A stretch of DNA of 64,000 bases from Escherichia coli (lineage in GTDB: Bacteria > Pseudomonadota > Gammaproteobacteria > Enterobacterales > Enterobacteriaceae): the NCBI RefSeq assembly GCF_044324875.1, contig NZ_CP172185.1; one strand, written 5' to 3'. Of the stretch, positions 12,001-18,000 are shown in pieces (within the stretch, counting starts at the first letter, position 1; each line of letters opens with the position of its first letter). Made by a program: the position numbers.

Positions 12001-15000
12001 TGAAGAATGATATTACTGGCTCCGGCGCTCTGGTGAAACAGGGGGCGGGTAATCTGATTATTAATCATGAGCTGACTTATACCGGTGATACCACGGTTGA
12101 GAATGGCGTTCTGATTGTCGGTGATGATTCAGTCACCCGTGCCGCTGGTGCGACGTTGTCAGGATCCAAAAACATTCATGTTCTTAATGGCGGCACACTG
12201 AGTGGGCTGGGGACCGTTTCGGGTCAGGTTAATAACCAGGGAACACTGGCATCACTGAATGCTCTCTCAGGTTATGAAACGGCAGAGGCGAGCAATTTTA
12301 CGGTTGGTTCACTGACCAATACCGGCGTCATTCGTCTGGCCGGTGGTAAGACAGGAAATACCCTGACCGTAAATGGCGATTACACCGGTGGCGGTACGTT
12401 AATTATCAATACCGTGCTGGGGGATGATACTTCTGCCACTGACAAACTGATTGTCACGGGTAACACCTCCGGTGATACCGGCGTGGTGGTGAATAATGTC
12501 CGGGGCCAGGGGGCTCAGACCGCTGACGGCATTGAGATTGTGCATGTCGGTGGGCATTCTGACGGTAACTTCAGACTGCAGAACCGTGCGGTGGCAGGGG
12601 CATGGGAATATTTCCTGCATAAAGGTAATGCGGGTGGTACTGACGGTAACTGGTATCTGCGTTCTGAATTGCCGCCAGAACCACAACCGCAGCCGCAGCC
12701 ACAACCGCAGCCACAGCCACACCCCACGCCGGATAAACCTGTACAGAAGGTCTATCGTCCGGAAGCGGGCTCTTATATTGCGAACATAGCGGCAGCCAAC
12801 ACGCTGTTCAACATCAGAATGCACGATCGTGAGGGGGAAACTTACTATACCGATGTGTTTACTGGTGAGAAGAAAGCAACAAGTATGTGGATGCGTCATA
12901 TCGGCGGTCATAATCGCTGGAAGGACAGCAGTTCACAGCTGAATACGCAAAGTAACCGTTATGTTGTGCAACTGGGTGGCAGCATTGCGCAATGGACTGA
13001 CGGTCAGGACCGTCTGCAACTGGGGATTATGGCCGGTTATGGAAATGAGAAGAGTTCCACGACATCCTCGCTTTCGGGATATAAATCTAAAGGTGCGATC
13101 AATGGATACAGCACCGGTTTATACGGAACGTGGCAGCAGAATGACGGTAATGACAACGGGGCTTATGTCGATACCTGGATCCAGTACGGATGGTTTAATA
13201 ATACCGTTAATGGTGAAAAACTGGCTGCGGAGTCCTGGAAATCCCGTGGATTTACCGGTTCAGTGGAAGCGGGTTATACCTTTAAAGCCGGCGAATTTAT
13301 CGGTAGCCAGGGTAGCCACTATGACTGGTATATTCAGCCGCAGTCCCAGATCACGTGGATGAATGTAAGAGCCAGTGAGCATACGGAGAAGAATGGCACG
13401 AAAGTTAAGCTCAGCGGAGACGGTAATATCCAGAGTCGTCTGGGCGTCAGAACTTACCTGAAAGGTAAGAGTGCGTCTGATGATAATAAGGCGCATCAGT
13501 TTGAGCCATTTGTGGAAGTTAACTGGATCCATAATACACGGAGCTGGGGTGTCAAAATGGATAATACGGCACTCAGTCAGGACGGAGCTACAAATATTGC
13601 TGAAGTCAAAACGGGTGTTCAGGGTAAATTGTCAGATAACCTGAGTGTCTGGGGCAATGTTGGTGTTCAGGCTGGCGATAAAGGGTACAGTGATGCCCAG
13701 GCAATGCTGGGTATTAAATATATATTCTAATCACACAGTGGCAGGAGGGGACCTCCTGCCACCTCAGGGTTGTCATAATGAGTTCTGTAATGAAATTTTC
13801 TGTTGTTAATGCAGTAGTGCTGCTGTTGCTGATTGTACTTACTGGTGTTTTTTATATGAAAAAGTCAAAAGAAATTGCAGTTGTTAATATCGATGCTATT
13901 TATAATCAGTCTACCGCCGGAGACATGGCCAAAAAGCATCTGAATGAGGTTAAGAGTATTCTTGAAAAAGGATATGAGGATGCGCAAAAAACATTCGCAG
14001 ATAACGCGAATAAAGAGGCGCTGCTTCTTGATGCCAGACAAAAACTGGAACGACAATATGTTATTGAGGAAAATAGCGCAAAAATGGTGTTATCCCGTGC
14101 GATAGATAATGCCATAGGCACATGGAGAAAAGACAATCCTAAAAATATTGCCGTATTGTCTTCAGGTGTTGTGCTTGCGCATAACGAGTCAGCTGATATC
14201 ACCAAAGAAGTCATGACTCTGGTTGAAAAAGAAAATCTGGTTTTTAATAAATTACCCAAAGTGGAAGTGCACAATAAGAATGAAGAGAAACCAGAACAAA
14301 GTAAGTAATCACTAGATTCTGACGATTTCCAGAAGGGAGATTCAGCAGGCCAGCATCTGTAATCATTCAGATTTGCTGGCTTGCTGCTAAATATGGTTGC
14401 TAAGAAAAATAGCAGGCCAGTAATTTATTCAGATTACTGAATATAATAATTTTTCAGGAACGGTTATGCTGAAGGTAGTATGTTTAATCGACACAATTAT
14501 TTGCTGAGTCTAATATGAGGTGACATTTTTATGATCACTGACCAGCAAGACTGACCCGTATTGATTAGCCTGATTATTGGCAACTTATTGGGGTAGTCAT
14601 TTTGACATCGAATGGGGGAGGTTTCCAGTTAAGTTCACGAATGCATGATGATTTGCGTTCACATATCGAAGTACTGGTTGACTATACTAAGGATTTTAAG
14701 ATAACTCACTGATTGTAAGTGGGTTATTGCGAGGGGGATGATAAATGGTGTCCCTGCAGAAATCATCTTAATTATTATTATGTTGATTTATATGTAGTTT
14801 ATTTTTGATTTTTTGTTTTTGTACCCGTTTTGTGCCCGTTTTATTCGATTCCCAATTTAAACTTCGATTCTAGAAAGGTGAGTAGGGGAGGTTATCATTT
14901 CATGTATCATTATTGTAGACACAGAATAATTACTCGCCTATCCTCACTGTAGACACACAATAGATACAGGAGTTAACCCACATGCGCACACAGGTTGTAT

Positions 15001-18000
15001 TGCAAAAATGGGGTAATAGCATTGCCCTTCGACTAACGGGAAACCTTAAAACCGTTCCGGGGTTTTCAGTGGGTGATATCGTCAACGTTGAAATTAGTGA
15101 AAAGGGGCTTTTTGTAGAAAAGCCTGCACGCCGTCGCCTGAGTGAAGCCGAATTACTCGCCGGGATAACGCCAGTTACAGCGCACGCGGACGAAATTGCC
15201 ACCCCATTCAATGAGGAGGTTGATTACTGATGTTTGTACCTAAGCGTGGTGATATTTGCTGGCTGGATTTTGAGCCGCAGAAAGGAAAAGAGAGCGGAAA
15301 GTATCGCCCGGCACTCATACTATCCCATGAGCAATATAACCGACTCACCGGGCTTGTCATATGCTGCCCCATAAGTACGAGCATACGAAATGCTCCCACA
15401 GAAGTTCCGGTAACAAATCTGGACGCCCCCAGCGTGGTAGCAACCACACTCATTCAAACCCTTGACTGGCGTCAGCGGAAAGCGCGCTTAATCACAGAGG
15501 CAGAAGATGGGGTATTTAATGATGTGCTTGAAAGAGTCATTACCCTGATTGGTGGAGAGCATCTGCTTAAGTAAAAGGAGGGCTGAGAAGCCCTCAACGT
15601 TACCAGAAATTTCCTTGCTATTCTTTCCAGTCAATCCCATCCAGTAAGCACCCTGCCTCATATTGCCCAACAACCCAGTCAAGATTGCAGGACTCATAGA
15701 AAGCGAGGCGATTATACTGTGGCTCGTTTTTTACCAGACCACGAACGGAACCGCGTTGCCAGTACAGGCACAGATTGGCAAGAGGTGTGATCAGCACAGC
15801 ATTGTCCGGGAAAAATGGAACGGTCACAGCCGGAAGATTCCCCAGCACGGGCTTTTTAATGATTTCCTCGTTAAGCAAAATTTCCTGATTCATCTGCGAT
15901 GGATCAAGACGGTTTATCAAAGGCCATTGTTTACGGACCAGAGTATTGTGACTGCATACGGCCACAATGCCTTCCTGCCACTGTTCATCAATCATGGATT
16001 GCCAGGCATCCAGAACAAGTGCATCTATTGTATGGTGTGTACCGCGTGTATTGCTTGTCGGCGATGAAACAGAAAGACCGCTGATAACCCTTCCCGCTGC
16101 TTCGTTTCGAAACTTCTGCAACCATCCGACGCCGCAATCGTCACGGCCCGGATATGTTTCAGGATCAGATTGATCGGCATAGTGTGTGCCGTTAAAACCA
16201 ATCTGAATTAAATCCAGCCATTTCCGGCGTTCAAAAGCGGCACGGGCGCTTCCTTCAAGACCATTTGCGGACGCGTGAGCATCGACATTGTCGTAGCTCA
16301 ACGCAAAATCAAAATTAACCTGCTCGCAGCGGTAGCCTCTTGAAACCAGTGAATGCGCCTGTAGTGGCGAACGGCGCTCGTGAGGTGGCGATGTACGTGC
16401 CAACGGCCCCGAAGCGTCTACCAGCACAACCTGACCTGATATATCCGTAACAGGCACGGGGGTTATTTCAGCAAGGAAATTTGCCTGCCATCCACTGGCA
16501 AGCGTTGCACTCTGGCGGGGAACGGGTTCAACTTCTGACGAATAGCGCGCAGTATCACCGGAAAAGTGCAAATCCTTCGGATGTTTTCCGGTTATCGACT
16601 CGATAGCGCAATTGAAAACCATCTGAGACTGTTGATTTCGTTGTGATACAACATAATCAGCAGTGCAATTATAACACTCAATGCCGTCGTTATTACCCCC
16701 ACCGCTTGCAGTATGCAGGGTGTGAAGCTCAAGCTCACGCTCCAGTTTTTGATATTCATTGTCCAGCGCGCGACGCGTCTCATCGCTTATGCTTGCTGTG
16801 TTTGCTTTCAGGCGATTCCGGCACATTAACTCCCTGAGTCGGCTCACTATATCAGCGCCGTGCAAATGTGAAATATTCAGACCGCCCATTACTGCCACCC
16901 CCGGCAGAGTTCTCTGCCCTCCGCAAGGTCGCGCATTTTTTCTGGATTCTGTCGCGCCGCGCTCCATTGTACAGGTGAAGGGGCGTTCCTGATTGCGTGG
17001 CTTACCGAATCCGGCAGTTTCTCCGGGCAATAACGAAGCGGATTGGAGGCATCGCTCTCAATATCGTTAATCCGGCCGCGAATCAGCCTGACACTTTCAA
17101 CAATATCTGCCACTTTCAGTGTTTCACATATTTTCTTTTCTGCGTTATACAGCGGCTGGCCAAGCAGCTCACATAAACCACGAATCAATAACAGAGCAGG
17201 GATCAGCTCGTTAATCAGTCCGGGAAGTGCTTTTGCAAATATCTCTGCCCGCAACTTATTATCAATGCTTTGGTAAGCACAGCCAGCCTCTGCCGCGTTA
17301 TAACGACACTCCAGTAACCTGATGCGCGCCTCATCATGCAATACCCGCAGACGCTCAAGATTTTCTCGCGCCACACCCGCCTGAATGCATAATTTTGCGG
17401 AGGCTTCCGTTTTTGCGCCCAGCGCAGACAGGATTGAGTTCTGCCAGTCACGATCGAGAGACTCCAGCTCCCCTTCCGTCTGTTCGATAGTCGCTTCCAG
17501 ATTGGTGATTAATGATTCCTGTTCGCTGAGTTTTGCCATGGCCGTATCAAACTGTGCTTTACATGCCTGATGCCTGGCGCTTGCCTGAGTTATATCCATT
17601 GTTTGCTCCTGTAATACATTTTTTACTTACGCCCATTTTTTCCATATTGCGTAATACATTCCAGCCGATTTTGTTCTCGTAATACGCTCACAATACTGTT
17701 GTATTACGCTTTCTTATATCGCGGGTGTTAAATCCCGGTATAAGCAATCAGGGAGGCAACACGATGAAAAAACAAAAGAAAATGCGATACGTATTACGCT
17801 GTATTCGTATCCCGCACGAAATCGACCATAAAATAAATCAGATATGTAAGGACAGAGAGATGAACTACTCCCAGTGCGTCAGAATGTTTATCTGTCAGGG
17901 AATTAAGGCCGGGGAAACGCAGGAAGAAGACCGCAACGGGCGCAGTGTAGCGGGGGATGTGTGGGCCTGGGCAAATGACCAGAACTACACGACGTAATAC

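Follow-up and report, generated by a model that had tools for sequence, protein, structure and literature searches.

We analysed a 64,000-nucleotide stretch of an Escherichia coli chromosome (contig NZ_CP172185.1 of assembly GCF_044324875.1; hereafter the window), in which a two-gene toxin-antitoxin operon occupies positions 14982-15574, at one end of an integrated P4-like satellite. The genes encode a MazE-like antitoxin and a MazF/PemK-family endoribonuclease toxin, and they are preceded by two copies of the 10-mer TGTAGACACA, the only exact copies in the window (Table 1). An initial annotation had described the pair as overlapping AbrB-type antitoxin and PemK/MazF-fold toxin genes behind two direct repeats, situated between a putative attR attachment site and a gene on the opposite strand. 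Its open reading frames (ORFs), overlap and coordinates proved accurate, both repeats were found, and the pair is indeed flanked by an attR copy on one side and by a minus-strand capsid-like gene on the other. We are highly confident that the two genes form a self-contained MazEF-family toxin-antitoxin operon of type II, working by the molecular mechanism set out below. The fuller account, in which the operon is also mobile cargo of the satellite and serves to maintain it, we consider moderately likely.

Table 1. Features at and around the operon (positions in the window; aa, amino acids)
Feature	Position	Strand	Description
attR	14746-14764		displaced 3'-end copy of tRNA-Arg(CCU), TGGTGTCCCTGCAGAAATC; left edge of satellite; compare tRNA end at 30080-30099
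argW-type integration-module arm	14765-14897		outside the cassette; no alignment between elements at different integration sites
Operator unit 1 (candidate)	14905-14933	+	TATCATTATTGTAGACACAGAATAATTAC; first TGTAGACACA at 14914-14923; predicted -35 TAGACA at 14916-14921
Operator unit 2 (candidate)	14939-14967	+	TATCCTCACTGTAGACACACAATAGATAC; second TGTAGACACA at 14948-14957; opens with the predicted -10 TATCCT, 14939-14944
MazE-like antitoxin gene	14982-15230	+	82 aa, ATG start; RefSeq WP_001260304.1
MazF/PemK-family endoribonuclease toxin gene	15230-15574	+	114 aa, ATG start; RefSeq WP_032353561.1
G+C-rich hairpin	15578-15595		GAGGGCT-GAGA-AGCCCTC; between convergent toxin and capsid-like genes; -16.1 kcal/mol, z only -1.77
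Capsid-like gene	15618-16889	-	423 aa; P2-type homology from about residue 120; TIGR01551 E 1.4e-39 (below cut-off); phrog_70 6e-78

The antitoxin-toxin pair and its candidate operator

The antitoxin stop codon TGA (15228-15230) and the toxin ATG (15230-15232) have one base in common within TGATG, an overlap that suggests translational coupling of the two genes. Shine-Dalgarno-like sequences stand ahead of both starts, AGGAG at 14968-14972 and GAGGAGG at 15213-15219. RefSeq lists the products as 'AbrB/MazE/SpoVT family DNA-binding domain-containing protein' and 'type II toxin-antitoxin system PemK/MazF family toxin'. The family name is already right in annotation pipelines, and the pair is an uncharacterised MazEF-family paralogue; literature searches turned up no report either of this pair or of a MazF carried by a P4-like satellite.

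The toxin matches Pfam PemK_toxin (PF02452) with an E-value (E) of 1.2e-24, its residues 5-105 covering model positions 1-107 of 109, and phrog_1936, 'MazF-like growth inhibitor', at 6e-27. Against NCBIfam MazF (NF007386; E 1.1e-26) it scores 92.9 bits, which misses the equivalog cut-off of 120 bits; we therefore regard it as a MazF-family paralogue and not an orthologue of chromosomal mazF. MazF chains in the PDB, from Klebsiella, Deinococcus and E. coli, match it at E 1e-16 to 4e-20. E. coli MazF gives E 3e-17 in this comparison whereas Kid gives only 3.9e-7, so that the pair stands nearer to MazEF than to PemIK/Kis-Kid. The label 'PemI/PemK (MazE/MazF)-like' in the initial annotation thus holds at the family level, with MazEF rather than PemIK as the closer relative.

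Residues E21, R26 and S49 of the toxin align with E24, R29 and T52 of E. coli MazF, which are reportedly its catalytic residues. Among 15 toxin homologues of 62-83% identity, E21 and S49 are invariant and R26 is nearly so; the serine in place of threonine at the T52 position retains the hydroxyl group. An AlphaFold model of the toxin has moderate confidence, with a predicted local distance difference test score (pLDDT) of 64.9 and a predicted template-modelling score (pTM) of 0.55. The top 50 Foldseek matches of this model in the PDB are all MazF or Kid, at template-modelling scores of 0.48-0.56 and E down to 3.5e-8, to which the modest quality of the model gives limited weight.

The antitoxin is harder to place. 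Pfam MazE_antitoxin (PF04014) matches it at E 9.4 as a single sequence and at 0.043 as a five-member alignment, and NCBIfam MazE at E 3.5e-4, far under its cut-off. As a single sequence it matches MazE chains in the PDB at 8.7e-5 (Deinococcus radiodurans, the best) and 3e-4. A profile built from five orthologues aligns residues 7-80 with E. coli MazE (1mvf/1ub4) at E 4e-6, and with D. radiodurans MazE (7d2n) at 2.7e-5. We assigned the antitoxin type from the PDB and NCBIfam matches because Pfam was uninformative; the structural model was too poor for a fold search. At the level of sequence the 'AbrB-type' assignment is upheld. The protein is similar to the AbrB/MazE/SpoVT DNA-binding domain in its N-terminal part and to a toxin-binding tail in its C-terminal tail (...ITPVTAHADEIATPFNEEVDY).

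Conservation of the two genes suggests that the pair is probably active. The toxin subfamily comprises 407 proteins at E <= 1e-10, mainly from Gammaproteobacteria. No stop codon interrupts any copy examined, and both genes are full length where present, except that a contig end truncates the antitoxin in one locus (L021) and that the antitoxin is largely replaced in two Salmonella loci (L016 and L019). Apart from these last two, the same layout, an 82-aa protein followed by a toxin of 114-119 aa, is shared by almost all relatives examined, whether from E. coli, Salmonella, Brenneria, Photorhabdus or plasmids. The nonsynonymous distance (dN) of the toxin is 0.04-0.16 with synonymous sites saturated, and because of this saturation the synonymous distance (dS) cannot be estimated for most pairs compared; against the plasmid and Brenneria copies toxin dN is 0.04-0.15 and dN/dS 0.02-0.07. 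These values indicate strong purifying selection on the toxin. In comparison with the same copies the antitoxin changes more quickly (dN 0.16-0.25), mostly in its C-terminal tail.

The two TGTAGACACA copies are the cores of two 29-nt units that agree at 23 of 29 positions and lie 34 bp apart. By itself the 10-mer repeat is only modestly unlikely: an exact 10-mer recurred within 60 nt of the 217-nt A+T-rich spacer in 436 of 20,000 mononucleotide shuffles and in 1033 of 20,000 first-order Markov resamplings (2-5% of shuffles). Of 3000 Markov resamplings, one gave a match of 23/29 between units. A whole-window chance test of the 10-mer with one mismatch was uninformative (2.65 copies expected), and the local shuffle test was used instead.

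An alignment of the sequence ahead of the antitoxin gene took in E. coli elements from two integration sites, three satellites of Salmonella, and the chromosomal loci of Brenneria and Photorhabdus. The core TGTAGAYAC is kept in two copies in the E. coli and Salmonella elements, 34-39 bp apart, between flanks that cannot be aligned. Brenneria has the exact core once, and Photorhabdus has as its first unit a perfect palindrome, GTATCTAC-TTA-GTAGATAC, with GTAGATAC found only within that palindrome; both genera have a degenerate second unit. One of the Salmonella elements reads GTATC-N9-GATAC at its second unit. In light of the Salmonella and Photorhabdus palindromes, the E. coli units, GTATC ATTATTGTA GACAC and cTATC CTCACTGTA GACAC with the common core TGTAGACAC, can be read as imperfect palindromes, and the direct repeats as the right halves of imperfect GTATC-N9-GAYAC sequences. 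Because the TGTAGAYAC core is conserved across genera while its flanks diverge, we take the repeats as a candidate operator of the toxin-antitoxin pair. The direct-repeat operator proposed initially is thus supported, in the refined form of palindromic units.

A predicted sigma-70-like promoter, the sole plus-strand match overlapping the repeat units, has its -35 element in unit 1, and its -10 element opens unit 2, so that unit 2 would cover the transcription start. Such an overlap would be the textbook arrangement of an operon repressed by its own antitoxin dimer.

In the mechanism that these features suggest, the promoter would drive a bicistronic antitoxin-toxin mRNA. As in the family at large, the antitoxin would dimerise via its AbrB/MazE-type N-terminal domain, and the dimer would act as a repressor of its own promoter by binding the two GTATC-N9-GAYAC-like units, while its C-terminal tail would wrap round the MazF-fold endoribonuclease and block it. 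Should antitoxin synthesis halt, proteases would be expected to clear the labile antitoxin; the stable toxin, once freed, would cleave single-stranded RNA at a short motif, so that translation and growth come to a halt.

The cassette within its satellite

The chromosome of strain ECCNB12-2 matches the window at 98.6% identity over 38 kb, except that the window has an additional IS21-family insertion of 2.64 kb. Positions 30080-30154 hold a tRNA-Arg(CCU) gene, whose 3' end is repeated at attR. In genomes that lack the island, CFT073 and Nissle among them, the sequence of window positions 14700-14764 overlaps the annotated tRNA-Arg. Together, the repeat and the island-free genomes define 14765-30080 as an inserted element of ~15.3 kb (12.7 kb without the insertion sequence, IS). 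From the tRNA side, its genes encode first an integrase, an AlpA-like excisionase/regulator and an Icd-like or repressor-like protein; then a P4-alpha-type primase (phrog_1139, E 2e-297), a second integrase-like protein and an Ogr/Delta zinc-finger activator; and last a 236-aa protein of no known family and the P2 gpN-like capsid protein. By this gene content, the element is a P4-like satellite at tRNA-Arg(CCU), with neither psu nor sid annotated. Its final module before attR is the toxin-antitoxin pair, which converges with the capsid-like gene.

Comparison of related elements shows the operon to be a mobile cassette, apparently extending over ~14898-15600, in a cargo slot of variable content next to attR. 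Copies at another integration site, like one divergent satellite, are homologous to the window only from 14898 onward. In that divergent satellite (L111) the pair is identical to that of the window at 113 of 114 toxin and 82 of 82 antitoxin residues, whereas its 240-aa and capsid-like proteins are only 32% and 49% identical, and DNA homology is limited to 14898-15812. A near-identical pair on such a divergent backbone indicates that the cassette was recently exchanged between deeply divergent satellites. Salmonella satellites keep the gene order with backbone proteins only 34-52% identical and the pair 71% and 78% identical.

What follows the capsid-like gene differs among the relatives. The slot holds MazEF in L111, RelB/ParE only in L101, and an unknown 170-aa protein with HicAB in L103; in L106 and L109 it holds nothing, and a host gene is directly next. 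The proposal that the pair is accessory cargo is borne out by this range of contents. Within E. coli the pair and the capsid-like module are linked: among 5426 complete genomes the module occurs in 60 places in 56 genomes and the chromosomal allele of the pair in 59 places, also in 56 genomes. These 59 copies are 95-100% identical, and the capsid-like gene beside the pair is 92.7-95.8% identical in all E. coli genomes but the closest relative. A functional requirement between the pair and the capsid-like and 236-aa genes, which co-occur in 56 of 56 E. coli genomes, was considered and rejected, since the backbone is found with other toxin-antitoxin families or none and the pair is found without the module.

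The subfamily is not confined to satellites. In Photorhabdus and Brenneria the pair lies in ordinary, non-mobile chromosomal contexts. IncK2/Z conjugative plasmids, mostly from poultry E. coli, carry a diverged allele directly after the relaxase gene (for example L100 5753-6345, on pTB-nb2, NZ_CP033633.1), with a toxin 93% (106/114), an antitoxin 76% (62/82) and DNA 76% identical; in the complete E. coli genomes this allele is found at 15 plasmid places. ECCNB12-2, the closest strain to the window, has both the chromosomal and the plasmid allele, and cross-talk between the two copies is possible there.

The two Salmonella loci with a replaced antitoxin (L016 and L019, 9274-10345) have a relB/parE cassette in place of the promoter and the first ~53 codons (two-thirds) of the mazE-like gene. 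Their toxin gene is intact, with only ~29 C-terminal antitoxin codons ahead of it; a possible TTG start gives ~40 aa. Either this remnant is a minimal antitoxin, or the toxin is restrained in some other way.

Several observations concern the neighbouring genes. The 236-aa and capsid-like genes together span 15618-17599 on the minus strand. The hairpin between the capsid-like and toxin genes has a T-run on the minus strand only and would thus serve mainly as a terminator of the capsid-like operon. A tblastn search with the 236-aa protein against 50,697 phage records gave no match, and therefore no detectable similarity to P4 Sid. A word-indexed search with this protein gave close relatives only, those in other lineages coming from a full HMMER library search; its profile found only 23 relatives among 1.84 billion representative proteins. 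When viral contigs were scanned with the capsid-like alignment, four close satellites were found and then P2-like phages only, none of them carrying the pair. No match to the P2/P4 cos core sequence used as query was found at <=3 mismatches, and Rfam at a permissive threshold gave nothing over 13700-18400.

The IS21-family element lies at 18246-20884 (istA 19117-20763, istB 18345-19343), 16 bp upstream of the ogr/delta start (18230, minus strand), and is absent from ECCNB12-2, the closest genome. In this strain it probably cuts the ogr, 236-aa and capsid-like genes off from their promoter. The second integrase-like gene (22053-23093, minus strand) lies directly downstream of the primase gene and is present in most E. 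coli and Salmonella relatives examined; its product of ~330-346 aa, with Int_N and Phage_integrase domains, could be a recombinase or a regulator. Iteron-like repeats at 21503-21793 comprise TTGTAACCGCTTTGCG three times (21565, 21694, 21778) and CGGTTACAACGGTTACA (21503, 21590), and they are related to a tandem pair of TGTRCCCGTTT in the att arm (14820-14841). They may be an origin or recombinase-binding sites. Just outside attR, 5817-14308 encodes UpaE, a 2637-aa phase-variable autotransporter adhesin, together with a 176-aa hypothetical protein; from this adjacency, the satellite was inserted between an existing UpaE/ipuAB island and tRNA-Arg.

The role of the pair

We propose, tentatively, that the pair serves to maintain the satellite, which is the most likely of its possible roles while falling short of being probable. 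The initial annotation had named stabilisation of the island and abortive-infection defence as possibilities only. By the logic of addiction, a cell would be penalised for losing the satellite, whether after excision or in the course of plasmid-like replication. Maintenance is favoured by the fixation of the pair within the E. coli lineage, by close alleles at a maintenance-type position on conjugative plasmids, and by the stabilisation of other helper-dependent islands by toxin-antitoxin pairs. Three reports describe such pairs as stabilising integrative elements: sgiAT in SGI1 (PMC5006074), HipAB in CGI48 (PMC8978831), and SezAT and AbiE in an integrative and conjugative element (PMC11062541).

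Several points weigh against this account. The predicted promoter is a weak match to the consensus (9 of 12 positions). Modelling gave no confirmation of a swapped-hairpin beta-barrel fold for the antitoxin: the AlphaFold monomer, of a fold that is an obligate dimer, reached a pLDDT of 54.6 and a pTM of 0.27 from a 5-sequence alignment. We infer the toxicity, cleavage motif, antitoxin lability and DNA binding of the pair. Two satellite lineages have an empty slot, so the pair is dispensable for the satellite life cycle. The computed data do not separate addiction from abortive infection or from purely selfish persistence. In addition, the analogous region of classical P4 is an anti-phage hotspot (PMC9122126), which favours defence.

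According to this last alternative, the pair is primarily an abortive-infection anti-phage system akin to the psu-int hotspot cargo of P4: infection would stop host transcription or degrade the antitoxin, and the freed MazF-like RNase would halt translation before the phage cycle completes. In the circular, excised satellite, the slot between the last late-operon gene and att/int has the same relative place as the P4 hotspot, whose gop/beta is toxin-antitoxin-like and protects against lambda and P1 (PMC9122126). The slot also turns over between different toxin-antitoxin families, and a near-identical cassette in very divergent satellites is a pattern typical of defence cargo. However, PADLOC matches neither protein of the pair, and for the pair and its neighbouring genes it reports no defence model, its sole hit being a weak and meaningless JetC match of the 236-aa protein. 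The parts of the P4/P2 hotspot census supplementary tables that were covered have only two PemK_toxin entries (an E. coli contig and a Bacillus cereus putative toxin-antitoxin) and no MazF, although this census is anchored on psu, which is not annotated in this satellite. Further, the slot content is fixed within E. coli (59 copies of the pair against 60 of the capsid gene), and the subfamily has a typical maintenance position on conjugative plasmids. We consider defence as the primary role unlikely, if not remotely so; as an additional effect of a pair that maintains the satellite, it is possible.

That the satellite copy is an anti-addiction module, its antitoxin neutralising the 93%-identical IncK2/Z toxin so that the plasmid can be lost without killing, is improbable. 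The similarity of the plasmid allele and the presence of both copies in ECCNB12-2 would fit this idea, but both alleles occur in only 1 of the 70 E. coli genomes that have either. Moreover, the antitoxin C-terminal tails differ strongly (ATPFNEEVDY versus ATLLDKESEF), making cross-neutralisation uncertain, and the operator regions of the two alleles differ as well.

Still less probable is the reading of the TGTAGACACA repeats as arm-type sites of the satellite integrase or excisionase. They are only ~150 bp from attR, and the att arm has further short repeats at 14820-14841, but it is the toxin-antitoxin pair, not the integrase, that they accompany. The repeats are the same in argW- and hpt-site elements despite unrelated att arms, their core is also upstream of the non-satellite Brenneria pair, a related palindrome precedes the Photorhabdus pair, and the plasmid copy is preceded by the related ATGTAGACAG. 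Finally, decay to a non-functional remnant, or chance ORFs, to which the toxin score under the NCBIfam MazF equivalog cut-off and the failure of Pfam to recognise the antitoxin might point, is effectively refuted by the conservation data: ORFs that are full length apart from the three loci named above, a toxin dN/dS far below 1 with conserved aligned catalytic positions, and the 407 homologues.

A broader reading can be built on satellite maintenance and defence alike, and we offer it as speculation that is more likely wrong than right by a wide measure. The attR-proximal end of capsid-encoding, psu-unannotated P4-like satellites would be a dedicated slot in which MazEF, RelB/ParE and HicAB are swapped between divergent satellites, the cassettes being tied functionally to the satellite life cycle. 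A cassette might be triggered by helper-induced convergent late transcription or by excision, and it would then kill cells losing the satellite or abort the growth of a helper or competitor phage. Such a slot would correspond to the psu-int defence hotspot of P4 but be specialised for toxin-antitoxin pairs.

The gene pair alone adds little, being an ordinary and already annotated member of the MazEF family. It is of value as a marker that helps to delimit a little-described family of P4-like satellites with a P2-type capsid homologue and no annotated psu, and it shows that the far end of these satellites is a cargo slot exchanged among divergent satellites, plasmids and chromosomes. If the pair does stabilise the satellite or abort phage infection, the idea of a satellite cargo hotspot would extend beyond classical P4, with a simple two-gene module that has a defined operator.

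Comparison with known systems

The E. coli MazE-MazF system (ChpAI/ChpAK; PDB 1ub4, 5ck9, 5cr2) resembles the window pair in its antitoxin-first bicistronic operon, in an antitoxin that aligns over nearly its full length, and in a toxin with equivalents of the catalytic residues. The E. coli mazEF promoter is likewise overlapped by repeated or palindromic sequence. In contrast, the window toxin is ~36% identical to E. coli MazF (a hand count on the alignment) and has serine in place of T52, invariant in its subfamily, and the window pair is satellite-borne, without the relA-mazEFG context. The best matches of solved structure are the Klebsiella pneumoniae complex (7bye) and D. radiodurans MazEF (7d28, 7d2n), with toxin E of 3.7e-20 and 1.1e-19; these are ~35-40% identical, chromosomal and from other genera, and are uninformative on specificity or role.

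PemI-PemK/Kis-Kid of plasmids R100 and R1 (PDB 1m1f) belong to the same fold family (PF02452), and the window subfamily is also carried by plasmids, of the IncK2/Z type. PemI-PemK and Kis-Kid follow the logic of plasmid maintenance. By sequence, however, Kid is much more distant from the window toxin than MazF is.

Two kinds of mobile-element cargo offer parallels in setting. Like the window pair, sgiAT of SGI1 (PMC5006074) and HipAB of CGI48 (PMC8978831) are type II pairs on helper-dependent mobilisable islands integrated at a tRNA or other gene. They belong to other toxin families, and for them stabilisation is reported as shown, whereas we infer it for the window pair. The psu-int hotspot cargo of P4, gop-beta-cII (Rousset et al. 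2022, PMC9122126), consists of unrelated proteins, and the window satellite differs from P4 in carrying a gpN-like capsid gene and no annotated psu; a psu-anchored census would therefore have missed its family. The two nevertheless share the same arrangement, a small probable toxin-antitoxin module after the late operon and beside the integration module, in a slot whose content varies between relatives.

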